Shown here: positions 4,279 to 53,538 of the stretch, piece by piece | Numbering within the stretch: the stretch's first letter is position 1 | Layout of the letters: each line of letters begins with the position of its first letter | NCBI GenBank assembly: GCA_903937035.1 | Contig: CAIZXS010000005.1 | Location: forward strand, 62,746 to 126,745 | DNA: 64,000 nucleotides | Reading direction: 5' to 3' | Origin: an uncultured bacterium | GTDB taxonomy: Bacteria > Patescibacteriota > Minisyncoccia > Moranbacterales > UBA2206 | Notes under the pieces: model-generated | What the model was told of the DNA's origin: nothing | Database searches by the model: none | What the model saw: the letters and a program-made list of their open reading frames with translations, nothing else | Made by a program: the position numbers and the translations under genes

Positions 4279-5256
4279 TTATTTTTCAGATAGGTTACTT
4301 TTTTGTGTTGTACTGAGCTTTAAAATAAAATTGATAATATCCCTGATCACGTTTCTAGATTTTCCAGAAGTTGGATTATAATGGATGTAGATGTCGGGTT
4401 TTCCATTTATTTCTAGAATCCCAAATGTTTGATTAGCTGGGTCGGCGGAAATATCCTCGCAAATTATATCAATGCCGGCGAGATAATCGCCAATGGCGTC
4501 AGCAGCCTTGGAACAGATGGAGATAATTTTTGCATTAACTATATCCGTCACATCTCGAGTTTCTCCTCCTTCAGCTAGAGAGGAGCTTTTTTTAATTGAA
4601 GCGATTTCTCCTGCAGCCAGGATGTGATTAAGGGAAAATCCCTGCTCGCTTAATATTTTTTTCAAAGTTCTGTCTATGGGCGTCTTTCTGTGAGTGCTTT
4701 TTTGTTTTTCCTCAATGAGTTTTTCAATGGTAGAAAGGCCATCACCAAAAACTCTTGGCGGAATCATCTCTAATGCTCCAATAACCTTTTCATCTAACAT
4801 AAGAACGCGATATTCTTTGCCAAAAATCATCTCCTGGGCGATAAGAGTTCTGAAATTAGAAATCTCACTCGTTAATATGGAGATTGCTTCTTCTGAGTTT
4901 TTAATGTAAGGAAAAATTCCCTGGCTATTGGAGCCAGAGGAGTCTTTGATGATGATGGGAAATTTGAGGCCAGAAAGCTTGCTGGCAATATCTTTTTTTT
5001 GAAAGTTTTTTCTGAAAAAGAAAACCGTTTCTGGTGTTGGAAGGGAGCGTCTTCGCAGTAGTGTATAGGTTAAGTCTTTGTGTGTTGTTGCTCCTGCTAT
5101 GCTAATGAAGTTTTTGGCAATTCTGAATTTTCTTGTAATTAAAAAAGCCTTCCCTCGGACATGGATATAGTAGCAGCCTCGCTCAGGAATGACCTCCTCA
5201 AATGTTCCTCCCATTTCCTCGACAACTTTTCTGATCAGTGGTGGATTTTTTATCAT
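4279..5256 (-). CDS. ATP-grasp ligase, RimK/cyanophycin-synthetase-like
   Basis: 325 aa. LAGIDIICED...FGILEINGKPDI ATP-grasp signature. Directly abuts the upstream gene (5257). Confidence 0.6.
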   Translation of the reverse strand: MIKNPPLIRKVVEEMGGTFEEVIPERGCYYIHVRGKAFLITRKFRIAKNFISIAGATTHKDLTYTLLRRRSLPTPETVFFFRKNFQKKDIASKLSGLKFPIIIKDSSGSNSQGIFPYIKNSEEAISILTSEISNFRTLIAQEMIFGKEYRVLMLDEKVIGALEMIPPRVFGDGLSTIEKLIEEKQKSTHRKTPIDRTLKKILSEQGFSLNHILAAGEIASIKKSSSLAEGGETRDVTDIVNAKIISICSKAADAIGDYLAGIDIICEDISADPANQTFGILEINGKPDIYIHYNPTSGKSRNVIRDIINFILKLSTTQKSNLSEK

Positions 5257-7951: not shown

Positions 7952-8668
7952 TTAGCCTAAATTGCTATAAATTTCACTCACATCATCATGGTCATCCAGA
8001 AGTTCCATGAGATTTTCGTAGGTTTCACGCATTTTTGCGTCAACCGTTATGGTAGTTTTGGGTAGATAAATTAGACCCGAGTCAATTATTTTAAGGTTTT
8101 CCTCAGCAAGGCTTTCTCGCACTTTGGCAAAATCTTTCTGATCGGTGATTATATTCAATACGCCTTCTTCCAAAATCGTGTCTTTGGCGCCAGCTTCAAT
8201 GGCGAGCATTTCCAGCTCGTCCGCTTCTTTTCCCTCAAGATCAATGCTGATGTTGCCAACTTGTTCAAAGTTCCACATCGCCGAGCCTTTTTCGCCTAAC
8301 TTGGAATTGTTTTTAGTGAGAATTGTTTTAACTTCCGATACAGTACGGTTTTTATTGTCTGTTGTACAGGAAATGAGGAGCATGAGCTCTCCTGGTCCAA
8401 CCGCTTCATAGAGAATTGCTTCAATCATCGCCCCCTTGATTTCGCCCGTTCCACGCTTAATGGCTCTTTCAATATTTTCTTTGGGCATATTCATCTCTCG
8501 TGCGCGATCAACCGCCATTCTAAGCTGAAAGTTTGATTCGAGCTTCCCTCCACCGTCTCTTGCCGCAATTGTGACTAACTTTCCGTATTTAGTGAAAATT
8601 TTGCCACGCTTAGCGTCGTTTATGCCTTTTCGTTGTTTTATTCCCGCCCAGTGTGAATGTCCTGACAT
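7952..8668 (-). CDS. yebC: YebC/PmpR family DNA-binding transcriptional regulator
   Basis: MSGHSHWAGIKQRKG...KNRTVSEVK family hallmark. The ORF track extends to 8704, but the conserved family N-terminus MSGHSHW begins at 8668. Confidence 0.85.
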   Translation of the reverse strand: MSGHSHWAGIKQRKGINDAKRGKIFTKYGKLVTIAARDGGGKLESNFQLRMAVDRAREMNMPKENIERAIKRGTGEIKGAMIEAILYEAVGPGELMLLISCTTDNKNRTVSEVKTILTKNNSKLGEKGSAMWNFEQVGNISIDLEGKEADELEMLAIEAGAKDTILEEGVLNIITDQKDFAKVRESLAEENLKIIDSGLIYLPKTTITVDAKMRETYENLMELLDDHDDVSEIYSNLG

Positions 8669-9090
8669 AAGCTCATGAAGCATAAAACATATAGCATGTA
8701 ACAAAATACAAATTGCTAGGCGTTTTGCGCTTTTTCGTTAACTATTTTATAGTTCTAGCTTAGCACTTTAATATGAAAAATTCAAGCAAAAATGATTGAC
8801 AAGAATGGTTTTATGTGCTCGAATAAATAGTCTAAGTTGGTTTTTTAAGGCTTAGAACAAGGCTAGCTCAGTTAGTTGATAAAAAGGAGCTAGAGTTTTT
8901 TGGCAAGAATGCTTTTTTAGTTCAAGGCTTATAGCACAAAAACTAAACCTATTTCCCTTTTATTATTTTTAAGGGCAAAAATATTAAAATATTTTAAAAA
9001 AGTTTTCCGCTGTGGGCGGATTTTTTTGTGGGAACTTATCTTGGTTTGATTTGTGAGAATGAGAATTGATTTCTGTGATTAAAAAATTTA

Positions 9091-9176: not shown

Positions 9177-9476
9177 TTATGCCCTAGAATAGATTTTAAT
9201 TTCCCATTTCTTCTCTGCGCATTCAGTGCAAAAATATTGACCATCAAATTTTTTCACCAGGATTTTTTTTATGGCGGCTCCAATTCTTGATCTGGTACTC
9301 ACAAGCTCCATCAAGGCCATATTTACGAGCTCCTTGATGGTGATGAAGGTTTGCCTGCCATCACCTCCGCAGTTGGCGCAGTTATGAAAAACTGATTTTT
9401 GCTCAAGCAAAACATCTGCCTCAAAGCAACTATTGTCGCAGGTGATACTAATCCTGTTTTTTATTTTTGGCATCAT
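9177..9476 (-). CDS. Small zinc-ribbon protein (CxxxC/CxxC x3), function unknown
   Basis: 99 aa with Cys pairs CDNSC, CANC and CTEC. Own terminator downstream. Confidence 0.45.
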   Translation of the reverse strand: MMPKIKNRISITCDNSCFEADVLLEQKSVFHNCANCGGDGRQTFITIKELVNMALMELVSTRSRIGAAIKKILVKKFDGQYFCTECAEKKWEIKIYSRA

Positions 9477-24708: not shown

Positions 24709-25806
24709 CTAGGCGGCTGGAACCCATTTTAGGGCTTGTCCTGGTTCTAGGATTTCAACCCAGATTTGTCCAGGAACGAATTGTACCTCTTGACCGCTTG
24801 CGTCATAGAAGAAAAGTTTATTTTTGGCGTCAGATTTATCCTTTTTCCATGTTCCGGTTTCTTGTTTGCCGTTCATGTAGTAGAAAGCTTCACCTGAATC
24901 TGAGGTATCAAACCATGGATCGCCAAGTTGTACATTGTTGTATTGCTCACCATCAATTAGTTGATCAGATTTTGCCATCAAGACAACAACATTTTTTGGT
25001 GCAAGTCTTTTGTTGTTATTTCTGTCCGTGTCGGCTACATCAGCCCATGTTCTTAGCCAGGAATTTGTTCCTTTGTCGTAATCATATTCAACATCATAGG
25101 GCTTGGCAAAGGCAACACGCAGGTGGCCTCCAGTTGGTCTTTGGTCAAGTGGCGCTTCTTCTTTATGCGCATAGCCAACAAATTTATTTTCCATATTAAA
25201 TCCGAAATTTTTTGCTCCTTCTAGTAATTTGGCAAATTTAGCATAGCCAGTATCTACGCCCCTTGCCATCCCGGTTTTTCTGTAACAATATTGTTCAGCT
25301 GATCTTCCTGCATCGTTGTTGCAGTTCATATCGTCATAAATCTTGCTATTTAAGACTTCCTTGAACTTTTCAATGTCTGAGCGTCCCCAATGCACGAAGA
25401 TCGCATCAAGTCCTTCTGCGAGATTAAGAAAATCGTGACGTGCGCTACGCATTGAACCGACATCCTCCGGGTCTCCGCAAACGTAAACTCCCATAAGGCG
25501 GGTAATTGAGGCGGTGATAACTGGCATTTCGAAAACCATATCTGCATCAGAGAAGCCTGATGCCGGGCGGGCAGAGACGTCTGCTGGTTGCATGACGGCT
25601 ACGGCTCGACGTTTACGATTTTCACAGGGTAGTCCAGAAAGGTAACTGACTTCCTCGGAGTTTTTCGGCGTGGTTGTGTCGATTTTTTGGTTAATATTGA
25701 TTTGCTTCTTTTCTGGCTGTTTTTTGTTTTTGATAAGCAAAAATGCACCAGCTGCAATAATGATTATTGCGATAATAGCAATAATGATTTTTGACTTTTT
25801 TTCCAT
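24709..25806 (-). CDS. DUF3048 (YerB-like) secreted/membrane-anchored protein
   Basis: 365 aa. N-terminal TM anchor, then RRAVAVMQPADVSARPASGFSDADMVFEMPV matching the DUF3048 N-terminal signature. Confidence 0.5.
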   Translation of the reverse strand: MEKKSKIIIAIIAIIIIAAGAFLLIKNKKQPEKKQININQKIDTTTPKNSEEVSYLSGLPCENRKRRAVAVMQPADVSARPASGFSDADMVFEMPVITASITRLMGVYVCGDPEDVGSMRSARHDFLNLAEGLDAIFVHWGRSDIEKFKEVLNSKIYDDMNCNNDAGRSAEQYCYRKTGMARGVDTGYAKFAKLLEGAKNFGFNMENKFVGYAHKEEAPLDQRPTGGHLRVAFAKPYDVEYDYDKGTNSWLRTWADVADTDRNNNKRLAPKNVVVLMAKSDQLIDGEQYNNVQLGDPWFDTSDSGEAFYYMNGKQETGTWKKDKSDAKNKLFFYDASGQEVQFVPGQIWVEILEPGQALKWVPAA

Positions 25807-25897
25807 GGGTATTTAGATTTAAAAATTACCTCACTATTATACAGTAAAATTTGAAAATAAGGAAAGGGTGGCATTTAAGGGGAATTTTATGTGCTTA

Positions 25898-25926
25898 TTG
25901 ACAATATTTAAGCATTTGCTATATTT
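25898..25926 (+). promoter_or_regulatory. Candidate sigma70-type promoter for the Cys-rich small-protein operon
   Basis: TTGACA (25898..25903), 16-17 nt spacer, TATATT. Lies ~240 nt upstream of the first ORF. Confidence 0.35.
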
Positions 25927-26160
25927 AGCGCATGCATAGTTTGATTTTTCAAACAACCAAGCGAGTCAATAATATGACCGGGATTACCCCAGGTCGGCTT
26001 TGGTTTTTGAAAAATGAAATGTAGCGCATAAAAAAGAATCTCATTTTTGAAAAATCTAAGCCGGTTCCCAGGGACTCGGTTTTTTGTTTTTTAACAACAA
26101 AAAATAGTGTAAATATTTGGTATATATTGCTTCAACCTTAAATGAAGAGGGGGATGGGCT

Positions 26161-26502
26161 ATGAATTGCACAACGTGCAAAAATTACAGTGGGACTTGCG
26201 GAAACTTTCCTCCATTATCGGAATGGAAAGGAGATGGCTTCGGGTGTTGGGATCCTCGTGATTGGGATGCTCCAGTGAGAAGGCTGTCAAAAAGCAAACC
26301 AATCGTGAGCTCAACTAGGCTCGCGTCTTTGTTTAATGCTGTGGACGCAACTAACGGCGACAACGTGGTAATGCCAGAAGCAATTTGTTCAAACATTGTT
26401 TGCTCAAAAAGAAGTTGGTGCTGTGAAGAAATCGCCGAAAGATGCAAAAAGTTTTCGCCAATGGTCGAAGTGAGAAAGATTTCATGTCAAAGAGAGGGTT
26501 GA
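26161..26502 (+). CDS. Small cysteine-rich protein (N-terminal CxxC), paralog 1 of 3
   Basis: 113 aa. MNCTTCKNYSGTCGNF...GFGCWDP with 11 Cys in total. SD-like sequence upstream. Confidence 0.45.
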   Translation: MNCTTCKNYSGTCGNFPPLSEWKGDGFGCWDPRDWDAPVRRLSKSKPIVSSTRLASLFNAVDATNGDNVVMPEAICSNIVCSKRSWCCEEIAERCKKFSPMVEVRKISCQREG

Positions 26503-26517
26503 GAAAAGGGGGTGAAC

Positions 26518-26700
26518 ATGATTAAGAGTTGCGCTGAATGCGAAATGGCAAATCCAGGCCATCCAAGAGGACTCTGGTGTCCCTTCTATGATCTGGTTGT
26601 AAAAAACCCTGACGAGTTATTTAAAACATGCAGCCTGAAAGACTGTTTGTTTCCAAGAAAGGAGGCAGCAAATGATGCTCTGCGGGAATTGTCGGTGTAG
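26518..26700 (+). CDS. Small cysteine-rich protein (N-terminal CxxC), paralog 2 of 3
   Basis: 61 aa from MIKSCAECEMANPGHPRGLWCPFYD. aagggggtgaac SD upstream. The ORF-track start at 26512 is 2 codons earlier. Confidence 0.45.
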   Translation: MIKSCAECEMANPGHPRGLWCPFYDLVVKNPDELFKTCSLKDCLFPRKEAANDALRELSV

Positions 26701-26881
26701 TAAGTTTGTGTGGTATATGTCAAAAAATATTTGTCGGGCTAATAGAAAAGAAAGAATTATCGAAAACCCAAAAAAAATGGCAGAAGAATGTGGTTATTTT
26801 GTTCCAAGGGATGATGAGGAGGATGGTTGCGGTGACCGCAGTCATTCTCCTCAAGTGAAAAGAGGTGGCCCATGGAACTAG
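26672..26881 (+). CDS. Small cysteine-rich protein (N-terminal CxxC), paralog 3 of 3
   Basis: 69 aa. MMLCGNCRCSKF... aggagg SD upstream. Overlaps the previous ORF by 29 nt. Confidence 0.45.
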   Translation: MMLCGNCRCSKFVWYMSKNICRANRKERIIENPKKMAEECGYFVPRDDEEDGCGDRSHSPQVKRGGPWN

Positions 26882-26896
26882 ACACCTTTCTAGTGA

Positions 26897-26939
26897 GGCG
26901 GGAATTCTGAATTGAGAATTCCCGCCGTTTATTTTTTTC
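26897..26939 (+). terminator. Rho-independent terminator after the Cys-rich operon
   Basis: ggcgggaattc-tgaattga-gaattcccgcc perfect 11-bp stem followed by gtttattttttt. Confidence 0.7.
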
Positions 26940-26979
26940 AAAGACTTTTCGTGCTAGAATAGGGCTATAAAAAATTAAA

Positions 26980-28785
26980 ATGAACTATATGAAAAAAATT
27001 GCTCTCGGTTTGATTTTAATGGCTTCTGTTTTTTTATCAAATAACGTTGAGGCGCGGACAAATGTCATGGACTGGTACCTTAAAAATTTTGAGTCAGAAA
27101 TTAAGGTCAATAAGGATTCAACACTTCTCGTTACGGAAAAAATCACCGCTGATTGTGGCAATGCCTCTGGTAAGCATGGAATTTTTCGGACCTTGCCGAC
27201 AGTTTTTCGAACGACAGATAAAACAATCGCAATGCCGATTGAGCTTCTCGGTATCACAGATTTTAATGGCAATAGTTTGCACTATTCCACGCAAACTGAT
27301 TATTCAAATAAAACAGTAACTTGGAAAATTGGTGATCCTAACCGAACGGTGACGGGTGAGAATAATTATCTCATAACGTATAAAGTTAAAAATGCCGTTC
27401 TTTTTGATAAATCCGATTTTGATGAATTATATTGGAATTTGAATGGTAATTTTTGGGATCTGGAAACCGACAGTTTCACTGGCAAAATAGTCCTTCCATC
27501 AGAAATCACAAAAAGCAACACTCAAGTTGATTATTATACTGGCAGCTTGAATAGTAAGGGAAAGGATGGGGCTAGCTATTCTTGGCTTACTAATAATATT
27601 TTACAGTTTAAATCCAATAAGACTTTGTTGGTTGGCGAAGGCATCACAGCCTCTATTGCGTTCCCCAAAAATATTATTATGCCGTATGTGCCAACTTTTT
27701 GGGAAAAGTATGCGTTATATTTATGGTTAATTATCCCGCTTGTAGCGTTTGCTATTTGTTTTAGTGTTTGGGATAGATATGGAAAAGATCCGGAAGGTAA
27801 AAAAACAATTATCGCTGAGTTTGATATTCCTGAGAAGCTTTCTCCTTTGGAGCTCGGAACACTTTTCACTAATGGAAAACTGAAGACGGAGTTTATATCT
27901 GCCTCTATCATTAACTTGGCAGTTAAAAAAGTAATTCAAATTGAACAGACGGAAGGACTAGATTCTCTCAATGTTGGTTTGGCGAAAGAGGGAATTTCGA
28001 AACTTTCCGATGGGCAAAAATCTTTTGCAGATAAAGCTTTGAATTTCTTTCATATTGGGGAAGATTTTCGCTTGAAAATTATCAATAGAGATTTGATTTC
28101 AGAACTGGCAAGTCCTGAAAAAAAGTTAATACAGGAAATGTTTGGTGCAAAGGATGAAATCATGCTTTCCGGACTCAAAAATGAATTTTACAAAAGCCTT
28201 CCTGAGATTAAAAAGGTGACGTTGGATAGTCTAGAAAAAAAGCAGTTGATTGAAAAAACCGGCCTGACTTTTCAGATGATTTTTCTGGTTGCCGGATTTA
28301 TTTTAGCCTTTTCAACCTTTATTTTTACATCCATCTCTCTTTCAATTTTGCCTGCCATGATTTTGACTACGATTATGGTTTTTATTTTTTCCTTTTTAAT
28401 GCCCAAGAGAACGCCTGCTGGAGCTGAGGTGTATTGGAAAACTAAGGGTTTTAAGCTTTATATGGAAACAGCCGAAAAATATCGCGAGCAGTTTAATGAA
28501 AGGGAAAATATTTTTGAAAAACTTTTGCCCTATGCCATTATGTTTGGCATGACGAAATTGTGGATCAAAAAAATGAAGGAAATTTATGGCGAAGACTATT
28601 TCAATGCCTATCACCCGATGTGGTTCGTAGGCGGCAGCATGGCAAACTTTGATGCCGACAGTTTTGCTTCGCGTGTGGACAGTCTTTCTTCGGCTATGGC
28701 TTCTAATGTTTCTTCTGGCTCAGGTGCTGGCGGCGGCGGAGGATCAGGTGGAGGCGGAGGCGGGGGAGGCGGGGGAGGATGGTAG
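26980..28785 (+). CDS. DUF2207-family membrane protein with C-terminal poly-glycine tail
   Basis: 601 aa. Signal peptide, large extracellular N-domain, TM helices near residues 240 and 440-480, C-terminus SGSGAGGGGGSGGGGGGGGGGGW, typical of DUF2207. Confidence 0.6.
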   Translation: MNYMKKIALGLILMASVFLSNNVEARTNVMDWYLKNFESEIKVNKDSTLLVTEKITADCGNASGKHGIFRTLPTVFRTTDKTIAMPIELLGITDFNGNSLHYSTQTDYSNKTVTWKIGDPNRTVTGENNYLITYKVKNAVLFDKSDFDELYWNLNGNFWDLETDSFTGKIVLPSEITKSNTQVDYYTGSLNSKGKDGASYSWLTNNILQFKSNKTLLVGEGITASIAFPKNIIMPYVPTFWEKYALYLWLIIPLVAFAICFSVWDRYGKDPEGKKTIIAEFDIPEKLSPLELGTLFTNGKLKTEFISASIINLAVKKVIQIEQTEGLDSLNVGLAKEGISKLSDGQKSFADKALNFFHIGEDFRLKIINRDLISELASPEKKLIQEMFGAKDEIMLSGLKNEFYKSLPEIKKVTLDSLEKKQLIEKTGLTFQMIFLVAGFILAFSTFIFTSISLSILPAMILTTIMVFIFSFLMPKRTPAGAEVYWKTKGFKLYMETAEKYREQFNERENIFEKLLPYAIMFGMTKLWIKKMKEIYGEDYFNAYHPMWFVGGSMANFDADSFASRVDSLSSAMASNVSSGSGAGGGGGSGGGGGGGGGGGW

Positions 28786-30329: not shown

Positions 30330-31094
30330 TTAGCTTAATTGATTATTCAACTCTGGCGATTTGCTTGGAATCATATGCCACATCGTCCTGTGGATGCTCA
30401 AAAGGCTTTCATAAATCTTCTGGCTTTCGATAATTAGTCCAAACTGTTCTTCGAAAGACATGATGCCAACTTTATTATATCCATAAAGATTGATGCTGAC
30501 TGTAATTTTGAAAAATTCTGAATTGACCGCCTTGAACCGGCGGAATTGTACAGTATTCTTTTTGGCAATTTCTTTGAATTTTTCGGTGTCTGGATGGAGA
30601 CTATTGACCCAGACCTTATTCTTTATTCGAATAGGGATGTAAATATCATCAACCCATTTGGCATCAAAATTTGAGAGCCATGTTTCTGAATACCAAGAGT
30701 ATGTCTCTTTGACCGAGCTATTGGCGATAGCCCTAAATACCTCCTTGATTCCTTCTTCCCCTTCAAAAAAGCGAATGATTGGCTTTTTATCAATCAAGTT
30801 GGTGATGGAAAGCAGTTGTGGCATTAGTTTATCGACTGCTTCCATTTTTTCTACCAGCGTATGTTTAATTTTCTTAGGATTTTCGGCGTAGTATATTGAC
30901 TTCCCTTTCTTTTTATAGTGGCTAACCAGCCCCTTCTTGCCCAGTGAGGTCAAAACTAAATAGACCGTGGTTCTTTTGACTCCTGATTTTCTCGATAAGC
31001 GTTCGACGCTGGTCTCTCCTAGTTCCAAAGCGGCCAAATAGACTTTGGCCTCGTTGGCGCTGAGATCTAGCTTTTCTAGTTCATTAAAAAGCAT
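30330..31094 (-). CDS. TrmB-family transcriptional regulator (paralog 1 of 3)
   Basis: 254 aa. N-terminal wHTH LDLSANEAKVYLAALELGETSVERLSRKSGVKRTTVYLVL typical of TrmB. C-terminal effector domain. Confidence 0.6.
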   Translation of the reverse strand: MLFNELEKLDLSANEAKVYLAALELGETSVERLSRKSGVKRTTVYLVLTSLGKKGLVSHYKKKGKSIYYAENPKKIKHTLVEKMEAVDKLMPQLLSITNLIDKKPIIRFFEGEEGIKEVFRAIANSSVKETYSWYSETWLSNFDAKWVDDIYIPIRIKNKVWVNSLHPDTEKFKEIAKKNTVQFRRFKAVNSEFFKITVSINLYGYNKVGIMSFEEQFGLIIESQKIYESLLSIHRTMWHMIPSKSPELNNQLS

Positions 31095-32549: not shown

Positions 32550-33296
32550 CTATTTTTTTGCCATCTTCCAAAGTAAATCAAAATAGGATAGATAGGATTT
32601 GCGAAAATCTTCGTTTTTTATTTCAATGCAAAACATATCTTCACCACTGCCTGTGCCATAGGAATTGAGGGTGATGGAATCGTGCCAGATGTCAAAAGAT
32701 GTCGGTGAGGAATAGCCTTCCGGCAAAAAGCGATATTCCGAATTGGCGCGTTTCACGAGCTTCGCTTCTTCGGAGCCGATATTGCCAAAAATCAGCCTTG
32801 TTTTAATATTTTTTTTCGTGCGGATGCGATTGCTTCTTTCAAATACGCCGGATTTCTGCATCAATTCTTTGAACCGCATTGCTGCGCCAGTGACAACCAG
32901 ATATTCAGAATTGATTGGCATTAAATCATCTTTTCGCATAATCAATTCGCGATAAGCTTTTGCGCCTTCATAGATCCTGATTTCTTGGCCTTTCTTCTGG
33001 CCGACCAATTTTGCATTGATTTCTTCCATCAAATTCTTAGCCACAACTTCTTGTTGCCTAATGTTATCCAAAATATTTTGCGGATTGGCGATGCGAAAAA
33101 CCAAGCGGTTATTTTTGGTGGTTTTTAGCACCATTTTTTTATTCTCGAGTCCATCCAGCGCGTCATAGGCAACTTGTCGATGCATTCCTAGTTTTTTGAT
33201 TAAGGGGCCAACCGTATTTTCGCCCAATTCTAAAAGCGCATTATAGATTTTAATCTCATTGGGTGTGAGTCCAAGTTGTTTTAGTTCGTTTTCCAT
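32550..33296 (-). CDS. TrmB-family transcriptional regulator (paralog 2 of 3)
   Basis: 248 aa. LGLTPNEIKIYNALLELGENTVGPLIKKLGMHRQVAYDAL wHTH. C-terminus ends ..YFDLLWKMAKK like paralog 3. Confidence 0.6.
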   Translation of the reverse strand: MENELKQLGLTPNEIKIYNALLELGENTVGPLIKKLGMHRQVAYDALDGLENKKMVLKTTKNNRLVFRIANPQNILDNIRQQEVVAKNLMEEINAKLVGQKKGQEIRIYEGAKAYRELIMRKDDLMPINSEYLVVTGAAMRFKELMQKSGVFERSNRIRTKKNIKTRLIFGNIGSEEAKLVKRANSEYRFLPEGYSSPTSFDIWHDSITLNSYGTGSGEDMFCIEIKNEDFRKSYLSYFDLLWKMAKK

Positions 33297-40469: not shown

Positions 40470-41279
40470 CTATGTAGGTGCCATCTTCCACAACGCTTCA
40501 AACCAAGCACGGTTCATCCCATAGATATTTTTGTCTTCGATGAGGATGGAGATGGTATTGCTTTTGTCAAAAATCTGGTAGGAAATTTTGCCGTCATAAA
40601 TTTGGATGTTGGATTTGAACGGATCAATAAGATCATTGAGATAGCGGATTTCTGTGATCGCGTCATATTTATCATCCGACGTGCCAAAGGTAATTTCCGG
40701 TTTTTTCCCCGCGCGTAGAATGCGTTTTTTGAGGCCTTTATATTTTCTTTTTCTTTTATACTCATCATTGATTGCCTTAAACTTTTCTTCCGTTTGCATG
40801 GCGTTGGTGTTTATGAAAAGCAAAATTTCTGTTTTGGAGGTGAGGGTATCGTCGAGAATTTTTTGCATCCCTTCTTCACCTTCATAGAATTTCACCCCAG
40901 GTTTATTGAGCGTAATGTTATAGCTGGAAATGAGACTGGGCAGAGTATCTTCAAAAGTTTTTTTATCTTGATTGAGTTCAGCTTCTTTGTTCTCCAGAAT
41001 TTTCTCCAAATTACGCGGATGAGTCGCGCGCCACTTCGCCACTTCTTTTTCCTTTTCGATTTTTTCCACCAGATTTAGCGCAAGCAGTTCTTCCAGGGCT
41101 TTATAGGCCACTCCGCGTGGATGGTTAGCAATCTTTGCCACATCGCTGGCCTTCGTTTCGCCATGCTCAAACAAGCAATCCAGCACAGCGGATTGGGTTT
41201 TGGTGAGGCCGAATTTTTGGAGTTGGTCGTTAAACATTAGGTTGTTCGCTTCATGAACCCCGCCTTCTAGCGGGGACAT
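40470..41279 (-). CDS. TrmB-family transcriptional regulator (paralog 3 of 3)
   Basis: 269 aa. FGLTKTQSAVLDCLFEHGETKASDVAKIANHPRGVAYKAL wHTH. C-terminus ..WFEALWKMAPT. Confidence 0.55.
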   Translation of the reverse strand: MSPLEGGVHEANNLMFNDQLQKFGLTKTQSAVLDCLFEHGETKASDVAKIANHPRGVAYKALEELLALNLVEKIEKEKEVAKWRATHPRNLEKILENKEAELNQDKKTFEDTLPSLISSYNITLNKPGVKFYEGEEGMQKILDDTLTSKTEILLFINTNAMQTEEKFKAINDEYKRKRKYKGLKKRILRAGKKPEITFGTSDDKYDAITEIRYLNDLIDPFKSNIQIYDGKISYQIFDKSNTISILIEDKNIYGMNRAWFEALWKMAPT

Positions 41280-41386: not shown

Positions 41387-42088
41387 TTAATCCTTTTCTA
41401 TAGTATTGTCATAAAATCCAATTCTCTTTTTTGGCTCAGTATCTTCTTTCATCAGCCGCGCAATCATTTGAAAAACAACCTTGAAACTCTTGTCATATTT
41501 ATTTTCCATCAGCTCAACTTTTTCACGCAGTTGCTTGTGAGTGGACAAAATCTCTCGCAGTTTTACAAAAGTCCGCACAATTTGGATACTAACCGCCACC
41601 GCGCGCTTGCTTTTGAGAACGGCAGAAAGCATCGCGACGCCTTGCTCGGTGAAAACATAGGGAGCATATTTCAGATGTTGTCCACGACCTTTCTTCAAGG
41701 TCACAAATTGTGACCTTGAAGATTTGTTATTGTTTAAGATTCCATTTTGGAATCTTAAAGATTTTTTGTCACTTGAGGTCACAAATTGTGACTGCAAGTT
41801 TTCATCGTTCAAGGTGCCATTTTGGTACCTTGAAAATGCGGTAGCCTCTTTTTCACTTAATTGAAACATGAAATCTTTTGGAAATCGGTCAATATTTCTT
41901 TTAACAGCTTTATTTAAATTTCCTGTGATTACGCCATAAAGTTCAGCTAAATCTCGGTCAAACATCACCTTTTCCCCGCGAATAAAGTAAATTTGGCTCA
42001 TTATGCGTTCATCGGGGACTGCACTTGAGGTTCCATTTTGGAAGCTCAAGTTTTCTTTCTTGGCCATATTTTTTGATTTTTTAGACAT
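41387..42088 (-). CDS. ORF6N-domain protein (phage anti-repressor/Rha-like family) with internal in-frame duplication
   Basis: 233 aa. IYFIRGEKVMFDRDLAELYGVITGNLNKAVKRNIDRFPKDFMFQLSEKE is the ORF6N N-domain. C-terminal region has YAPYVFTEQGVAMLSAVLKSKRAV. There is an extra ~38-aa insert with FQNG/SQFVT repeats. Confidence 0.6.
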   Translation of the reverse strand: MSKKSKNMAKKENLSFQNGTSSAVPDERIMSQIYFIRGEKVMFDRDLAELYGVITGNLNKAVKRNIDRFPKDFMFQLSEKEATAFSRYQNGTLNDENLQSQFVTSSDKKSLRFQNGILNNNKSSRSQFVTLKKGRGQHLKYAPYVFTEQGVAMLSAVLKSKRAVAVSIQIVRTFVKLREILSTHKQLREKVELMENKYDKSFKVVFQMIARLMKEDTEPKKRIGFYDNTIEKD

Positions 42089-47965: not shown

Positions 47966-48610
47966 ATGAAAAAGACGATTAAGATGACGTTGGCGAGTAG
48001 TGTGGTGCTAATGCTACTTTTTGTTATTCTTGAGCCACAACTAACAAAAGCCGTTAGTGATTCCGTTACTGTTTCTCAATCAGTTACCGCCGAGATCACC
48101 ATTTCTTCTCCGTCTGACGTGACAATGTCAAGTATTGCTGGTATCACTGGCGGAACCGGAACAGGGTCGGCCATTTGGAACGTCAAGACTAATAATTCCA
48201 CAGGATTTAATATGGCATTGAAGGCTGGCGCGGCCCCAGCACTTGCTAGCGGTGGAAATAATTTTGCTGATTACGGGGAGGCCACTCCCGATACACCTGA
48301 TTATACTTGGTCGATTGCAGCCACTGATTCAGAATTTGGTTATACGGTTGAACCAGCAACAGCTGGTGACGCTACAGTGATGTTCCGGGATAATGGGACA
48401 ACGACTTGTGGAACAGGAGCTAATCAGACTGCTGACAAATGTTGGATCAAGTTTAAGACAACTGATGTAATTGGGATTAACCGGTCTAGCGTAACAACTG
48501 CAGCTGGAGAAGACGAGGTGGTGAAATTCCAAGCTCAATCTGGCGCATCGCACTTTCAACCACAAGGAACATATACAGCTACCATTACCGCGACTGCCTT
48601 GGTTAACTAA
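47966..48610 (+). CDS. Secreted beta-rich surface subunit, SCPU/DUF4402-like (type 1 domain)
   Basis: 214 aa. Signal peptide. C-terminal strand GTYTATITATALVN resembles the G-x-Y-x-G-x-F-T-V-T-V-x-Y-N end of DUF4402/spore-coat-U-like fimbrial proteins. Paralogous to the C-half of 52762..53514. Confidence 0.45.
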   Translation: MKKTIKMTLASSVVLMLLFVILEPQLTKAVSDSVTVSQSVTAEITISSPSDVTMSSIAGITGGTGTGSAIWNVKTNNSTGFNMALKAGAAPALASGGNNFADYGEATPDTPDYTWSIAATDSEFGYTVEPATAGDATVMFRDNGTTTCGTGANQTADKCWIKFKTTDVIGINRSSVTTAAGEDEVVKFQAQSGASHFQPQGTYTATITATALVN

Positions 48611-48647
48611 GTAGATTTCAGATGCAGGGGGTCGGTCTAATATATCT

Positions 48648-49622
48648 ATGAAAAAACTATTACTTTTCTTTTTTGCGATTTGTCTTTTTAGCAAAATTGG
48701 GGCTGCCCCAGTTTTTGCTTATAAAATAGAAGCTTTGGACGACTCTGAGACTAAGGGTGATTTTGTTTTGGGACCAGGTAAGACGGAGCTTTTTATGAAT
48801 CCGGGAGAGACCTATACAAAGGAGCTGATGATAACCAATCGTCTAGGTCGTACGATGGAGTTTGGTGTAATCGTTGAGGATTTTAAGGGTTCGAAAAATC
48901 CAGAAGAGAGTGTAAATCTTTTGGGTGATGAGCGAGGACCATTTTCTTTGCGCGACTATATTAAACCGGAAATTACCAAATTCACATTGAAAAATAATGA
49001 AAGGATTCTTTTGCCGACAGTCATTGCGATTCCGGCTGGTTCTGAACCGGGTGGTCTCTACGCATCTGTTTTAGTGGTCACCAATCCATCGGAAGAGGAA
49101 TTGAAAAAAGAGGATGAGAATAAAGGAAAAACAAAACTTATTTCTCGCTTGGGCACGCTATTTTTTGTGCGCGTAAAGGGTACTGCTAAGGAAGAGGGAG
49201 TTCTCAAGAGTTTTAATGTTAAAGATAATAAGCTTTTTTTTGAAAAAGCACCAGTATCCTTGGAAGTTCTTTTTGAAAATACTGGCAGTGTTCATTTGAT
49301 GCCTTATGGCTCGATTGAGATCAAAAATATTTTGGGTCAAAAAATTGATGAGATTAATGTTGATCCATGGTTTATTATGCCCGGGTCAATGCGGTCACGA
49401 GTGATTGAGTGGAGCGGGAAGAAACTATTATTTGGTAGATATACAGCTGAATTGGTTGAAAATAGAGGGTATGGGGATATTTTAGATAAAAAATCAATTA
49501 GCTTTTGGATTATTCCTTGGAAAGTTGTTTTAGCTATACTTTTCTTTTTATTCCTACTTAGCTGGTTTTTTCGCTGGGTGGGACGTCAATTTCATTTTGA
49601 AGTCAAGAGAAAGAAAAAATAA
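48648..49622 (+). CDS. DUF916/DUF3324-like cell-surface protein with C-terminal TM anchor (CscA-like), paralog 1
   Basis: 324 aa. Signal peptide, EPGGLYASVLVVTNP and FENTGSVHLMPYGSIEIKN beta-sandwich motifs, C-terminal TM VVLAILFFLFLLSWFF followed by basic tail RKKK. Confidence 0.45.
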   Translation: MKKLLLFFFAICLFSKIGAAPVFAYKIEALDDSETKGDFVLGPGKTELFMNPGETYTKELMITNRLGRTMEFGVIVEDFKGSKNPEESVNLLGDERGPFSLRDYIKPEITKFTLKNNERILLPTVIAIPAGSEPGGLYASVLVVTNPSEEELKKEDENKGKTKLISRLGTLFFVRVKGTAKEEGVLKSFNVKDNKLFFEKAPVSLEVLFENTGSVHLMPYGSIEIKNILGQKIDEINVDPWFIMPGSMRSRVIEWSGKKLLFGRYTAELVENRGYGDILDKKSISFWIIPWKVVLAILFFLFLLSWFFRWVGRQFHFEVKRKKK

Positions 49623-49639
49623 ATAAAAAAACCTATTCA

Positions 49640-50344
49640 ATGAAGTATTATATTGCCGTTTTCTTTTTAGTGTTATTTGCTTTTGGCGCTCCCTGTTTTT
49701 CATTGGCTGGAATGAGCAGTCAAAATTTTTCCATCCAAGCTGATGCGATTGATGTTGGAGGTACGCGTTCTTCATCTGGGGGAGTTTCTTTGAATGATTC
49801 GCTCGATGAGCTGGCAACGGGAGAATCAAGGAGTCTTTCTTTTATGGCGGATATCGGTTTTTGGCCAATGGTGGGCAATGATGAGGTTATCTCTTTCACC
49901 GTGACAGACGCGATAGCTAGCTTGGGAACACTTAGTCATTCGGCAGTGAGATATGACACAGCTACTTTCCGCGCTGCAACAACAGCCAAGGGCGGTTATT
50001 CTATCCAGTTTTTTGGGGTACCATTAACTTCTGGGGGTAATTTGATTAGTGCGCTGAGCACACCAACGCCTTCTGCGACTGACACGGAACAGTTTGGGTT
50101 TAACTTAGTGGCCAATAATTCCCCAGCGGTGGGCGTTGACCCTGTGGGTGGATCAGGTCAAGCTGCAGTTGGCTATAATACGCCAGATAGCTTCAAGTTT
50201 GTCTCTGGTGAAACAATTGCTCAAGCAGCTTTGCCCTCTAACTTTACCAACTACACAATGTCAATCATCAGTAACATTACAGGAATAACTGACGCGGGAA
50301 ATTATGCCACAAACCTAACCGTTGTTGTGACAGGAAGGTATTAG
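49640..50344 (+). CDS. Secreted beta-rich surface subunit with N-module MSSQNFSIQAD.. (type 2 domain)
   Basis: 234 aa. Signal peptide. The N-module is shared with 52762..53514. C-terminal strand GNYATNLTVVVTGRY. Confidence 0.45.
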   Translation: MKYYIAVFFLVLFAFGAPCFSLAGMSSQNFSIQADAIDVGGTRSSSGGVSLNDSLDELATGESRSLSFMADIGFWPMVGNDEVISFTVTDAIASLGTLSHSAVRYDTATFRAATTAKGGYSIQFFGVPLTSGGNLISALSTPTPSATDTEQFGFNLVANNSPAVGVDPVGGSGQAAVGYNTPDSFKFVSGETIAQAALPSNFTNYTMSIISNITGITDAGNYATNLTVVVTGRY

Positions 50345-50436
50345 TTGATTTTGAAAAAAATAGCTTTACTCTTTTATTATTTTTGGTATAATAAAATAGA
50401 TGGAGAAAATATAAATAATATATTAGTAAAAACAAA

Positions 50437-51522
50437 ATGCAACAAAAAAAAGGATTCATTGTTGGCTTGGGGGTTATGGTGCTTATTACGCTTGGAGTGT
50501 TTATTCTGAAAGCTCAAGCCGCATCACTTACAACAGCAAGAGTTTATCTTAATCGAAATGCAGAAAATCTCACCACAGGCGTGGCACACGAAATCCAATT
50601 TACCCCAGCGACAGCTGTCTCTGGTGGGGCGGGAGTGAATAAAGTAATTTTGGTTTTTCCAGATGCTGATGATGGTAAGTGGTGTGCCACTGCGGGAGCA
50701 CTTGTTGTCACGACTACAGGACTAAAAGATACAGCTACTGCGCTTCCTGGCACTCCGACAGCTGCTTGCGTAAAAGGAGTGGGCGCTGCCAGCTACGACA
50801 CTATCACAATCAGCGCCGTTGATGATTTATCCGCTGCAACACTTTATGGTGTAAAACTGACAGATACTGGAGTGGGAAAACTCGGTACGCCGGCTAATAC
50901 AACATCAGGCATCATCACGATGAAAACCAATAACAATACGATTGACATTGATAGTACTAATTTTGTTATTGACATTCTTGCTAGCGATCAAATTTCTATC
51001 TCAGGTGTGGTTGACCCAACTTTGACTTTTTCTATTTCAGATAGCTCAATTGGTTTTGGAACAATTACTTCAGCTGCTGTGAGATATGTCACAGCAGATT
51101 TGCTGGGTAGCGCGACTGAAGCGACCAACGGGTTGCCATCGACAGTAACTGTTTCAACTAATGGTACTGGTGGTGTTGTAGTAGAAATCAAGGATACTAA
51201 TGCTAATTCAGCTTCTGGTCTCTATAGCAATGCTGGATCAGGAAAGACGATCGCTTCTGCTGCTAGTACTGCTGTTACCTTAGGGAATGAAGGTTTCGGA
51301 GTATATGGAAAAAATTCCAGCAACATTACGCTCAGCGAAGCGTTTGACAATGACAGCACCGCTGATCTGGCAATTAGCACAACTTTTCAAACTATTGCTT
51401 CAACAGCTGGTCCTGTTAGTTCCGGCTCATTTGATATCTCAGCCAAGGCTGGCGTGTCCGGTTCGACTCCTGCTGGTAGCTATGCCGATACGCTGACAGT
51501 TGTTGCAACAGGAAAATTCTAA
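50437..51522 (+). CDS. Secreted/anchored beta-rich surface subunit (type 2-like domain, larger)
   Basis: 361 aa. N-terminal TM/signal. Region TFSISDSSIGFGTITSAAVRYVTADL parallels ISFTVTDAIASLGTLSHSAVRYDTATF of the preceding gene. C-terminal GSYADTLTVVATGKF. Confidence 0.45.
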   Translation: MQQKKGFIVGLGVMVLITLGVFILKAQAASLTTARVYLNRNAENLTTGVAHEIQFTPATAVSGGAGVNKVILVFPDADDGKWCATAGALVVTTTGLKDTATALPGTPTAACVKGVGAASYDTITISAVDDLSAATLYGVKLTDTGVGKLGTPANTTSGIITMKTNNNTIDIDSTNFVIDILASDQISISGVVDPTLTFSISDSSIGFGTITSAAVRYVTADLLGSATEATNGLPSTVTVSTNGTGGVVVEIKDTNANSASGLYSNAGSGKTIASAASTAVTLGNEGFGVYGKNSSNITLSEAFDNDSTADLAISTTFQTIASTAGPVSSGSFDISAKAGVSGSTPAGSYADTLTVVATGKF

Positions 51523-51545
51523 ATTAATCCTTACTCTTAAATCAA

Positions 51546-52535
51546 ATGACTGCGAAAAATAAATTTCTTGCTTTTCTTAGAATCGGTGCATTTCTTTACT
51601 TTATTTTTCTGGGAAAAGGAGCATTTGCTCTCACAATTTCTCCTCCAGTGAGGGAGATGACAGGGGACCCAGGAACAAAAATCAGTGGGATTATAAAGCT
51701 TTACAATGAAACCAATAAGGACCTTTCCGTTACTCCTTCGCAGTCAGACTTTGGCGCCAAGGAAACTGGTGACGGCGAGCCAGAATTTTTTGAGTTGAGC
51801 GGAGAAAAATCAAAAGATTTAGCCAGTTGGATTAAGGTTCCCGCTGGTCCTTTTGCAGTTAGATCGCTTGATTGGCAAAATATTATTTTTGAAATTGATA
51901 TCCCAAAAGATGCTGAGCCCGGAGGTCACTATGCTGCAGTTTTCTTCAGTCCGCAGCAATCAGAGAAAGACAATAATGGATCAGTTAGTGTTGACTATAG
52001 AACTGGGACATTGATTCTTCTCACGGTTTCGGGAAAAATGAATGAAAGTGGAAATTTGAAAAGTTTCTCTCTGAAAGATGGCAAAAAATTCTATGATCAC
52101 ATTCCGGTTAATTTTGAATTGAATGTTGAAAACAAGGGCAATGTTCATTTTAAACCAGCGGGAAATATCATTGTTAAAAGTATGTTTGGCGGAAATATCG
52201 CTGAGCTGCCAGTCTTGAAGGTTGATTCTGGTGGAAATGTTTTGCCCAGAAGCAGCCGTCGATTTGAGATTGTTTGGGGTGATTCGGATGAAAAGAAAAT
52301 GCCTAAAACTTTTTGGGAAAAGGCTAGATATGAATGGGCTAATTTTTATGTCGGAAGATATAGTGCGCTTGCGAGTGTGACGCTTCCTGGAAGCGGTCAG
52401 GTGACTTCCAATGTTTCATTCTGGGTTTTTCCTTGGCAGTTGCTTATTGTGCTGGCCATTGGACTGGTTGTGTTATTGTTTGCGTTTAGAACGTATAACC
52501 GTTGGATTATCAAAAAAGCCAGAGAGAAAAAATAA
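51546..52535 (+). CDS. DUF916/DUF3324-like cell-surface protein with C-terminal TM anchor, paralog 2
   Basis: 329 aa. EPGGHYAAVFFSP, FELNVENKGNVHFKPAGNIIVKS, C-terminal TM LLIVLAIGLVVLLFAF plus basic tail. Collinear with 48648..49622. Confidence 0.45.
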   Translation: MTAKNKFLAFLRIGAFLYFIFLGKGAFALTISPPVREMTGDPGTKISGIIKLYNETNKDLSVTPSQSDFGAKETGDGEPEFFELSGEKSKDLASWIKVPAGPFAVRSLDWQNIIFEIDIPKDAEPGGHYAAVFFSPQQSEKDNNGSVSVDYRTGTLILLTVSGKMNESGNLKSFSLKDGKKFYDHIPVNFELNVENKGNVHFKPAGNIIVKSMFGGNIAELPVLKVDSGGNVLPRSSRRFEIVWGDSDEKKMPKTFWEKARYEWANFYVGRYSALASVTLPGSGQVTSNVSFWVFPWQLLIVLAIGLVVLLFAFRTYNRWIIKKAREKK

Positions 52536-52581
52536 AAAAGTATTAAGGATTTCTATTTATATAAAAAATAACCCCCCCTAT

Positions 52582-52720
52582 TGTCATTCTGAGCGTAGCG
52601 CAGCGAAGTCGAAGAATCTGCTATGAGTTATTCTAATCCTTGCTATATTATAGAAAGCTTATGGTAGTGGATGGCAGATCCTTCGACTGCGTCCGAGTAC
52701 GGACTTCGCTCAGGATGACA
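52582..52720. repeat. Repeat family A, copy 3
   Basis: tgtcattctgagcgtagcgcagcgaagtcgaagaatctg ... gcagatccttcgactgcgtccgagtacggacttcgctcaggatgaca. Preceded by a C7 homopolymer. Confidence 0.7.
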
Positions 52721-52761
52721 TTTTTATTTAAATGCGCAAGTCCTTTTTTCAAAAGTTCGCT

Positions 52762-53514: not shown

Positions 53515-53538
53515 AAAAATATTAAATTAAAATTTGAT

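Follow-up and report, generated by a model that had tools for sequence, protein, structure and literature searches.

Three consecutive small open reading frames (ORF1, ORF2 and ORF3), all rich in cysteine, lie in a 64,000-nucleotide stretch of a Candidatus Moraniibacteriota chromosome (hereafter the window). They raise the question of whether they are genes at all, what their products would do and how their expression would be controlled. From the sequence they had been predicted to form a tightly coupled operon of three paralogous CxxC proteins without recognisable family, and zinc-ribbon or other metal-binding proteins, redox-active proteins and RiPP or bacteriocin precursors had been named as candidates. 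The best explanation overall, to which we give about an even chance of being correct, is an attenuator-controlled, lineage-specific expression module of metal-binding mini-proteins.

The features of the locus are collected in Table 1. The data support a compact, co-oriented and translationally coupled operon closed by a strong terminator, as had been predicted: every ORF has its own Shine–Dalgarno (SD) site, the overlap between ORF2 and ORF3 is exactly 29 nt, and the intrinsic terminator after ORF3 has a 12-bp stem (26897-26926) with seven G-C pairs, directly followed by a T-rich tail. The predicted sizes of 113 and 69 aa hold for ORF1 and ORF3, while ORF2 has 60 residues from ATG or 62 from GTG instead of 61. 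Likewise, a third Cys 13-16 residues past the CxxC was predicted for all three proteins, and in ORF1 this spacing is six residues. Each module also has a fourth conserved Cys, which had not been listed.

Table 1. Features of the locus (positions in the window; strand in the third column)
Feature	Position	Strand	Description
DUF3048 gene	24709-25806	-	Divergent flank; synteny anchor, outside the module
Sigma-70-type promoter	25898-25925	+	TTGACA, 16-nt spacer, TATATT, TG extension; 11/12 consensus positions
Structured leader RNA	25932-26090	+	About 160 nt; bistable terminator/antiterminator; conserved; without Rfam family
Upstream ORF (uORF)	25932-26024	+	30 codons; invariant ATG 7 nt past the -10 box; ends just past segment 2
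Segment 1, anti-antiterminator strand	25940-25962	+	Pairs with segment 2
Hairpin P1	25976-25995	+	GACCGGG-AUUA-CCCCAGGUC; GAUUA loop invariant
Segment 2, switch strand	25992-26019	+	GGUCGGCUUUGGUUUUUGAAAAAUGA; pairs with segment 1 or segment 3; core invariant
Segment 3, antiterminator strand	26041-26066	+	Overlaps the 5' arm of the leader terminator
Leader intrinsic terminator	26058-26092	+	AAGCCGG..CUCGG, then U-tract
TTRACAA box	26091-26097	+	Conserved; right after the leader terminator; marks loss of between-strain similarity
Shine–Dalgarno sites	26149-26154, 26508-26512, 26660-26665	+	GGGGGA, GGGGG and AGGAGG; 5-6 nt upstream of the respective ATG
ORF1	26161-26502	+	113 aa; two 4-Cys clusters: C3, C6, C13, C29 and C76, C81, C87, C95
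ORF2	26518-26700	+	60 aa from ATG, or 62 aa from GTG at 26512; CX2C-X12-C-X16-C module
ORF3	26672-26881	+	69 aa; CX2C-X13-C-X18-C module, then acidic tail
Cassette-end intrinsic terminator	26897-26936	+	GGCGGGAATTC...GAATTCCCGCC, then T-rich tail; conserved
DUF2207 membrane-protein gene	26980-28785	+	Downstream; possible functional partner

Among related loci read through the end of the cassette, the closing terminator was seen by sequence in L007, L009, L010, L012, L013, L014, L047, L055 and L057. In L009 and L013 it is kept although the DUF2207 gene is missing downstream and tRNA genes come next. It is absent from L051, where the last gene, of ORF3 type, overlaps the DUF2207 start with its stop codon (ATGA). 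On the other side of the cassette, the DUF3048 gene and the leader are separated by three other genes in L047-L050. Genes neighbouring the cassette are DUF3048, holA, tsaE, rpsT, DUF2207, DUF1653 and fpg. In public gene calls, ORF3 is shortened to 54 aa and loses its CxxC; ORF2 is missing from the protein database and called on some contigs only. The present data correct this annotation for ORF2, where calls are patchy, and for ORF3, where the start was placed 15 residues too late.

Chance open frames in a long intergenic stretch could produce such a pattern, and some data agree with this. The Cys contents of ORF1, ORF2 and ORF3 are 8.8%, 8.3% and 8.7%, while 35 of the window's long genes have 0.66%; taken alone, such Cys richness reaches only about the 95th percentile of spurious ORFs. 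The codon-usage log-likelihood ratio is about 0, compared with 0.27 for the long genes. Moreover, gene callers skip ORF1 and ORF2 on most contigs and truncate ORF3. For every ORF the annotated frame scores highest among the six possible ones, and the codon-usage score is depressed because of the Cys-rich composition. Against a chance origin, each ORF is preceded by a strong SD site, and syntenic homologs occur in other genomes with the same gene order and invariant Cys positions at 22-45% identity to the window proteins. The Cys spacing is conserved in homologs, and its loss, which had been named as grounds for refuting the prediction, was not observed. The residues N2, C3, C6, C13, F16, P17, L19, W22, G24, W35, C76, C81, K83, A92 and C95 are invariant in ORF1, and C5, C8, H15, P16, G18, C21, P22, Y24, V28, P31, T37 and C38 in ORF2, homologs of which are present in L047-L050 and L057. 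Contigs of the same strain (L001-L005) show 100% identity or a single-base difference and for this reason carry no evolutionary signal. In the one testable pair (L009 versus L013), ORF1 is under purifying selection, with a dN/dS of 0.19 in frame versus 0.68-0.70 in shifted frames. This ratio refutes a spurious origin for ORF1, and conservation strongly disfavours it for ORF2 and ORF3, so that chance frames are an exceedingly improbable explanation.

Paralogy of all three genes is not supported. Only ORF2 and ORF3 are detectably related: hhalign placed all four Cys in register over 41 columns (E 7.8e-5, probability 62%), and in hmmsearch the ORF2 profile matched an ORF3-type protein with an E of 2.6e-4. 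BLASTP among the three ORFs gave no significant match, and profile comparison alone links ORF2 with ORF3. ORF1, with its two 4-Cys clusters, forms a family of its own; five representatives were its only matches among 1.84 billion proteins. A word-indexed search of 5.8 billion proteins returned self matches only. The predicted lack of a recognisable family was confirmed for the window proteins by Pfam (no match at E<=1), and nothing significant was found in searches of Pfam, PHROG, NCBIfam, PADLOC and PDB sequences, each covering part of the set formed by these and selected sister-cassette proteins. Matches to Cas2, YfhL, DUF6472 and S27a (E 0.02-0.1) were taken as chance. The window's ORF1, and no other member, matched phrog_25387, a phage T4 gp33-like late transcription accessory protein, with an E of 3e-4; 0/6 other members matched it and tblastn against phages gave an E of 0.7, and an assignment of ORF1 as late promoter transcriptional regulator was rejected. 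Viral origin was rejected as well: besides the non-significant ORF1 match, tblastn of ORF3 against phages and a BFVD structure search gave no match, and the leader motif was not found on viral contigs. A literature search on Cys-rich small proteins in Patescibacteria returned nothing. In these comparisons, the cassette protein families are orphans restricted to one sub-clade.

With four Cys per module, the operon probably encodes tiny iron-sulfur- or zinc-binding proteins. The ORFs are best read as having a role in metal binding or redox activity, and here the original prediction is supported; a classical zinc ribbon is not, as ORF2 and ORF3 have one CxxC knuckle only. The products would be cytoplasmic mini-proteins built of CX2C-Xn-C-Xn-C modules of about 40 residues, one each in ORF2 and ORF3 and two 4-Cys clusters in ORF1, and each module may ligate one metal centre. 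The likeliest ligand would be a [4Fe-4S] cluster of the cubane type, bound within a HiPIP-like fold, with structural Zn(II) as the alternative. Single Cys ligands 12-18 residues apart beside conserved aromatics typically mark cubane sites and are unusual for zinc ribbons. Conserved aromatics near Cys are F12, the W/Y/F before the CP motif, F16, W22 and W35 in our proteins. In AlphaFold2 models the core of the Cys module reached a pLDDT of 73-86, and a beta-hairpin and a helix are predicted for the conserved 40-residue domain; for ORF1, modelled from a five-sequence alignment, the pLDDT was 38 and the model unusable. The fold evidence for an Fe-S centre is weak.

With structural Zn(II), the proteins would be small adaptors or binders of nucleic acids, of zinc-finger, treble-clef-like or rubredoxin-like type, and operon and regulation would be unchanged. 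By sequence, Zn(II) fits the four invariant Cys of each module equally well. In addition, proteins of type F in L012, L048 and L055 have two CxxC knuckles, as in zinc ribbons, and weak, sub-threshold matches to zf-C4pol, L37e and DZR. Like zinc ribbons and rubredoxin-like mini-proteins, ORF2 and ORF3 are small, with four Cys and an N-terminal CxxC knuckle. However, a ribbon has two CxxC/CxxH knuckles on two beta-hairpins, and the ORF2 and ORF3 families conserve one, their third and fourth ligands being isolated Cys; no zinc-ribbon or rubredoxin-like structure was among the fold-search matches. We hold structural Zn(II) to be possible but doubtful.

On the side of the [4Fe-4S] reading, HiPIP (PF01355) shares the CxxC...C...C ligand pattern with flanking aromatics, and the ORF1 N-terminal GxC-xx-FP...G-x-C-W shows by eye a resemblance to the HiPIP core, which serves as a lead only. 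There was no Pfam match to PF01355 at E<=1 among the window proteins and ten sister-cassette proteins, or at E<=10 among ORF3-family members. HiPIPs are exported, periplasmic proteins with an N-terminal signal, whereas the ORFs, which have their first Cys at residue 3-5, possess neither signal peptide nor N-terminal extension. They also differ from HiPIP in Cys spacing, and the bacterium concerned, a member of the CPR, is an anaerobe and no phototroph. WhiB-like (Wbl) proteins, small cytoplasmic [4Fe-4S] regulators with four Cys that bind partners and also occur in phages, offer an analogy for the proposed role. They differ in Cys order (C-Xn-C-X2-C-X5-C) and are actinobacterial, and the ORFs have no Pfam Whib match. 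The Fe-S accessory subunits of glycyl-radical enzymes have HiPIP-like folds with a [4Fe-4S] cluster; in BSS-gamma the cluster is coordinated by a CX2CXnCXnC motif, and MASS-gamma also carries one (PMC12358834; PMC12590467). In contrast to these subunits, the present genes make up a cassette that varies between strains and is preceded by a putative attenuator. Pfam and PDB sequence searches, with profiles and single sequences, gave no link of the ORFs to the HiPIP, BSS and HPAD families, nor homology to BSS-beta/gamma, MASS-beta/gamma and HPAD-gamma (BssB/BssC, MasB/MasC, HpdC). Such subunits are encoded beside a glycyl-radical catalytic subunit and its radical-SAM activase. The +/-6 kb around the cassette contain neither of these, and a Pfam scan of window proteins, which took in 22.6-31 kb and 32.5-54.8 kb, detected no enzyme of the glycyl-radical or radical-SAM type.

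Small, Cys-rich and tandem ORFs would also suit RiPP or bacteriocin precursor peptides, the third of the predicted candidates. However, neither the +/-6 kb around the cassette nor the other window proteins that were scanned include a radical-SAM, LanM, YcaO, protease or ABC-transporter gene. The Cys module begins at residue 3-5 and therefore leaves no leader peptide, ORF1 has 113 aa with two clusters, and the conservation fits a folded 40-residue domain. A precursor role is very improbable.

How would these metal-binding proteins be expressed? Directly upstream of ORF1 lies a conserved leader; this leader and the replacement of cassettes between strains had both been overlooked in the original prediction. 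The promoter is kept in 11/11 distinct orthologous loci, and nhmmer found exactly one leader copy at each locus. Leader DNA is 72-91% identical to that of relatives, while the ORFs behind it cannot be aligned as DNA. Rfam 15 gave no match at the gathering threshold in the window, and at E<=10 only chance-level matches in 25780-27000, far below gathering scores. Across 11 sequences, the segment 1:2 helices are 89% and 95.5% paired, with two-sided changes at three pairs, and the leader terminator is 94.5% paired, with two such pairs. The 24-bp segment 2:3 helix is 96.2% paired in 11 orthologs versus 41-67% for slid partners (41-70% for terminator and antiterminator pairing together), and its double changes are two compensatory pairs. 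Covariation of the leader is modest, most pairs being simply conserved. The P1 stem is rebuilt in L009 and L013 (CCAGUC/GACUGG), and orthologs differ in which of the two states has the minimum free energy. With its conserved U-tract terminator hairpin and, overlapping the 5' arm of this hairpin, a mutually exclusive antiterminator, the leader has the generic make-up of an intrinsic-terminator attenuator.

The uORF at the start of the leader may be translated from a leaderless transcript, because its ATG is 7 nt after the -10 box. Its frame is open for 29-32 codons in 11/11 distinct leaders, with indels of -3, +3 and +6 nt; after shuffling, the frame would stay open by chance with a probability of about 0.1 for each sequence, and 1-4 stops interrupt the two remaining frames. 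Substitutions are even over codon positions (18/20/21), with a pN/pS of 0.85, and runs of regulatory codons are absent. These values argue against constraint at the peptide level, and a conserved peptide was ruled out.

In the regulatory mechanism we infer, the strong promoter would start the leader, and by default the leader would fold into its intrinsic terminator and transcription would halt. If 25992-26017 paired with 26041-66 instead, the resulting 24-bp antiterminator helix would let RNA polymerase read through into the three coupled genes, and this transcript would end at the second conserved terminator. The input signal could be a ligand or protein at the P1/GAUUA region, or the position of a ribosome on the leaderless uORF. 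Such an arrangement resembles trp-, pyr- and erm-type attenuators and riboswitch platforms in its four segments, exclusive 1:2, 2:3 and 3:4 pairings and U-tract terminator, and in the short upstream ORF over segments 1-2. It differs from them in having no Rfam family, no regulatory codon run and no peptide-level conservation, and in its apparently leaderless uORF.

Having its own promoter and terminator, the element of about 160 nt might otherwise be an independent small RNA, with the Cys-rich genes on a separate promoter in the spacer. The conserved TTRACAA box past the terminator and TATAAT/TATATT -10-like hexamers before the first ORF in the window, L055, L058 and L059 leave room for such a promoter, in which case the leader would be a separate sRNA. 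However, no second promoter with consistent spacing was found in the 47-75-nt spacer: the distance from box to hexamer varies from 9 to 31 nt in spacers read by eye, and the 47-57-nt spacers of L009, L012 and L013 have no credible -10. A promoter at the TTRACAA box was rejected on this ground. Moreover, an antiterminator helix that overlaps the terminator is a hallmark of a cis-regulatory switch, and the leader travels with the cassette, always directly upstream even where either flank is rearranged. An independent sRNA is accordingly unlikely in our judgement, and cis regulation remains the preferred reading.

Behind this putative switch, the genes themselves vary between strains. BLAST similarity to L055 (93%) and L007 (90%) stops at 26089-26098 and resumes from about 26893 (L057) to 27022 (L007), giving sharp breakpoints. 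Strains with 90-93% flank identity have different gene sets, and ten cassette architectures occur in about ten lineages. The proteins are tiny and fast-evolving, and between strains they are exchanged as cassettes in which an ORF3-type gene keeps the last place; on these grounds they may be docking subunits. They would dock on partners as small redox, accessory or regulatory subunits, comparable to Wbl-type regulators or to the Fe-S subunits that assist glycyl-radical enzymes, and would be neither enzymes nor exported peptides.

The same variability could reflect a conflict locus, in phage defence or anti-defence or between symbiont and host, where fast-diversifying inhibitors or decoys are exchanged between a conserved leader and terminator; either metal is compatible with this. 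The number of architectures, the unrelated gene sets between sharp breakpoints and the restriction of orphan families to one sub-clade are in its favour, as is a dN of ORF1 that is 14x that of the flanking gene (L009 versus L013). Nevertheless, there were no PADLOC or PHROG matches, viral contigs lack the leader motif, no integrase or mobile-element genes are adjacent, and the dN/dS of the one testable pair indicates purifying, not positive, selection. We regard a conflict locus as rather unlikely. The boldest combination of these elements would be a new CPR system, in which a cis-regulatory RNA (riboswitch or leaderless-uORF attenuator) controls a recombination-swappable array of at least six orphan HiPIP-like mini Fe-S families, serving as interchangeable redox or docking subunits in strain conflict or symbiont-host interaction; at present this is a speculative proposal and improbable as a whole.

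Genomes of CPR/Patescibacteria hold many lineage-specific orphan genes without a functional handle, and this locus offers a concrete and testable case. Its small proteins share invariant CX2CXnCXnC modules and offer a structural lead towards Fe-S accessory subunits, its candidate regulatory RNA is conserved and absent from Rfam, and its cassettes are clearly replaced between strains that are nearly identical. Should the Fe-S reading be right, HiPIP-like mini-proteins would no longer be confined to glycyl-radical enzymes and the electron carriers of phototrophs. The leader would be a new class of regulatory RNA, and its ligand could reveal what these episymbionts sense.

Codon usage and composition were equivocal on whether ORF1–ORF3 are genes. 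Cys makes up 8.3–8.8% of the three products versus 0.66% for 35 long genes of the window, a richness that ranks only near the 95th percentile among spurious ORFs, and the codon-usage test gave no clear coding signal; therefore, composition alone is no proof of coding. A word-indexed search of 5.8 billion proteins returned self hits only, and only four relatives of ORF1 beyond itself turned up when 1.84 billion representatives were scanned exhaustively with HMMER. Contigs of the window locus in other samples showed either 100% identity or a single-base difference. With the DUF3048 neighbour serving to anchor synteny, 41 loci were recovered, and further loci, two ORF2 homologs among them, came from the contigs of ORF1 relatives and from a metagenome scan with the motif of the upstream leader RNA. 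Where the flank was 81–84% identical, tblastn and ORF inspection placed ORF1-type and ORF3-type genes (homologs of the window ORFs) at the same position, with small proteins only 30–42% identical.

Family alignments left invariant N2, C3, C6, C13, F16, P17, L19, W22, G24, W35, C76, C81, K83, A92 and C95 in ORF1, C5, C8, H15, P16, G18, C21, P22, Y24, V28, P31, T37 and C38 in ORF2, and C4, C7, F12, C21, A37 and C40 in ORF3 (nine distinct members), so that Cys positions are kept in the homologs of each. For the closest ORF1-type pair, from comparison loci L009 and L013, dN/dS was 0.19 in frame and 0.68–0.70 out of frame, and dN was 0.183 versus 0.013 for the adjacent DUF3048 gene. On these comparisons, ORF1–ORF3 are real proteins under purifying selection and in very fast evolution. 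In public gene calls, ORF3 starts at Met16 (54 aa) and loses the conserved CxxC, ORF2 has no entry in the protein database and is annotated on just a subset of contigs, and ORF1 is called on short contigs only; comparison across loci backs the longer start of ORF3 as well as the existence of all three genes.

The locus lies on a chromosomal segment of Candidatus Moraniibacteriota (CPR/Patescibacteria), and its nearest genome records come from Moraniibacteriota MAGs with a flanking gene 97–98% identical. The operon structure in the original prediction was confirmed in the sequence: each ORF has its own G-rich Shine-Dalgarno site 5–6 nt ahead of ATG, ORF2 runs 29 nt into ORF3, and a terminator follows.

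Features of the Cys-rich locus and its leader (window positions)
Feature	Position	Description
DUF3048 gene	24709-25806	divergent to the three ORFs; one flank of the trio
Promoter	25898-25925	near-consensus TTGACA, 16 nt, TATATT; extended -10
Segment 2:3 antiterminator	25992-26017 with 26041-26066	24 bp; 96.2% paired in 11 orthologs
Leader intrinsic terminator	26058-26092	94.5% paired in 11 orthologs; two pairs changed on both sides
TTRACAA box	26091-26097	directly 3' of leader terminator; conserved at 11/11 loci
ORF1	26161-26502	+; 113 aa
ORF2	26518-26700	+; 60 aa
ORF3	26672-26881	+; 69 aa
Downstream terminator	26897-26926	after ORF3; 12-bp stem
DUF2207 membrane-protein gene	26980-28785	other flank of the trio

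The original prediction also took the three proteins as paralogs, which held for only one pair. BLASTP gave no significant match among them. Profile–profile comparison of the ORF2 and ORF3 families aligned 41 columns with all four Cys of each in register (E 7.8e-5, probability 62%), and the ORF2 profile matched an ORF3-type protein (E 2.6e-4); hence, a single CX2C-X12/13-C-X16/18-C module plausibly underlies both, which would make ORF2 and ORF3 distant paralogs. ORF1 has in common with them only the N-terminal M-x-x-C-x-x-C; it carries two clusters and forms a family of its own.

Pfam, PHROG, NCBIfam, PADLOC and PDB-sequence searches found no relationship for the window proteins or the scanned sister-cassette proteins; a weak PHROG match of ORF1 could not be reproduced and was discarded. 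The AlphaFold2 model of ORF1 had a pLDDT of 38, and that of ORF3, from a 7-sequence alignment, gave a moderate-confidence core (residues 1–45, pLDDT 73–86) of predicted beta-hairpin, short strand and helix. The putative Cys ligands are isolated, 12–18 residues apart, with conserved aromatic residues beside them, and ORF2 and ORF3 miss a second CxxC knuckle, a pattern that we take to speak for a cubane cluster rather than a zinc ribbon. Binding of Zn(II) by these modules is nevertheless a serious alternative. The fold match to HiPIP-like [4Fe-4S] accessory subunits of glycyl-radical enzymes (BSS, MASS, HPAD) is weak; the Cys-rich proteins would probably be like them in fold and in how they act, and they stand outside those families. 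Pfam scans of the window proteins at 22.6–31 kb and 32.5–54.8 kb brought up no glycyl-radical or radical-SAM enzyme, and therefore we speak of resemblance to these subunits and not of family membership. HiPIP-like Fe-S or zinc-binding docking subunits are the most likely reading of the three products, and in this respect the metal-binding part of the original prediction is supported. Another small Cys-rich ORF (9177-9476, minus strand, 99 aa) carries CxxC and CxxC-type pairs (…NCANCGGDG…FCTECAEKKW) and lies in the gap between a gene ending at 8704 and one starting at 9586.

The 350 bp upstream of ORF1 are 72–91% identical to relatives, far above the ORFs, and include, downstream of the promoter, a leader of ~160 nt without a matching Rfam family. 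In 11 distinct orthologs this RNA can take two alternative states. In one, segments 1 and 2 pair, and hairpin P1, with its invariant GAUUA loop, and the intrinsic terminator form; in the other, the predicted segment 2:3 helix occupies the terminator's 5' arm. Slid-partner controls for segment 2:3 paired at 41–67% versus 96.2%, and two pairs were compensatory. The predicted minimum-free-energy fold switches between both states from ortholog to ortholog. A uORF of 29–32 codons has an invariant ATG exactly 7 nt past the -10 box and is open in 11/11 sequences, with indels in frame (the chance of an open frame in shuffled sequence is ~0.1 each). Its substitutions spread evenly over codon positions (18/20/21) with pN/pS of 0.85, and therefore the conserved thing is the RNA and not the peptide; ribosomes on the uORF may or may not drive the leader switch.

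The leader adjoins the cassette, that is, the variable genes between it and the downstream terminator, even after flank change on the DUF3048 side (L047–L050) or the DUF2207 side (L009 and L013, where tRNA genes stand in place of DUF2207). In L047 (1385-3760), and likewise in L048–L050, RadC-like, PhdYeFM antitoxin-domain and HD-domain genes lie between DUF3048 and the leader, which shows that the leader goes with the cassette and not with DUF3048. The spacer to the first ORF is 47–75 nt and holds no consistently spaced -10. The leader is best read as a cis-acting attenuator, and an independent sRNA is possible. The TTRACAA box lies where between-strain similarity is lost, has no -10 hexamer at usable distance, and could be a protein-binding or recombination site.

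DNA similarity to L055 (93%) and L007 (90%) spans DUF3048 and the leader and ends at 26089-26098. It resumes weakly near the downstream terminator, from 26893 (L057) or 26897 (L007), and is solid again inside DUF2207, from 27022 (L007). Between these points, the window carries ORF1-ORF2-ORF3 types. A single gene lies there in L007 (ORF3-type) and in L009 and L013 (ORF1-type), and two types in L010 (ORF1 and ORF3) and L057 (ORF2 and ORF3). In L047–L050, ORF1 and ORF2 types are followed by a fusion with an ORF3-type module at its end; in L051, L055, L012 and L014, Cys-rich genes of other types precede a final ORF3-type gene. In L051, the ORF3-type gene and DUF2207 share an ATGA (4818-4821), stop of the one overlapping start of the other, with no terminator between them, so that there the cassette would be transcribed together with DUF2207 and coupled to it in translation. 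In L014 (~4660-4860, minus strand; 1166-1350 of the reoriented upstream region), the ORF3-type gene stops early (…EKEEILLIVVTSD), and an overlapping frame encodes …DSFDCSYLGLAER, matching the tail at the C-terminus of the L051 homolog (GSFDCSYFGLIERQA); a frameshift or misassembly at an A-rich run is the probable cause. Leader and protein families occur as one copy per locus and in this sub-clade only; the metagenome scan found the leader motif on just five contigs, and none was found in viral contigs.

An ORF6N-domain protein lies in the window (41387-42088, minus strand) and a Bro-N-domain protein near the L051 cassette (8070-8369). Both are phage-associated antirepressor-type domains, and no other prophage signatures were seen. 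Three paralogous HTH regulators of the TrmB family (30330-31094, 32550-33296 and 40470-41279, all minus) fall within 11 kb. On the plus strand, one open frame, 2,915 codons long or more, extends from 55259 to the window end at 64000 without a stop and probably encodes a giant surface protein, as is typical of CPR bacteria; just upstream, seven consecutive co-oriented genes (47966-54777, plus strand, 214–412 aa, no Pfam match at E<=1e-5) are a block of lineage-specific orphans.

ORF1–ORF3 form a real operon of orphan mini-proteins with four-Cys modules that is confined to this lineage, is arranged as a strain-variable cassette and most likely lies under a conserved, previously undescribed terminator/antiterminator leader.
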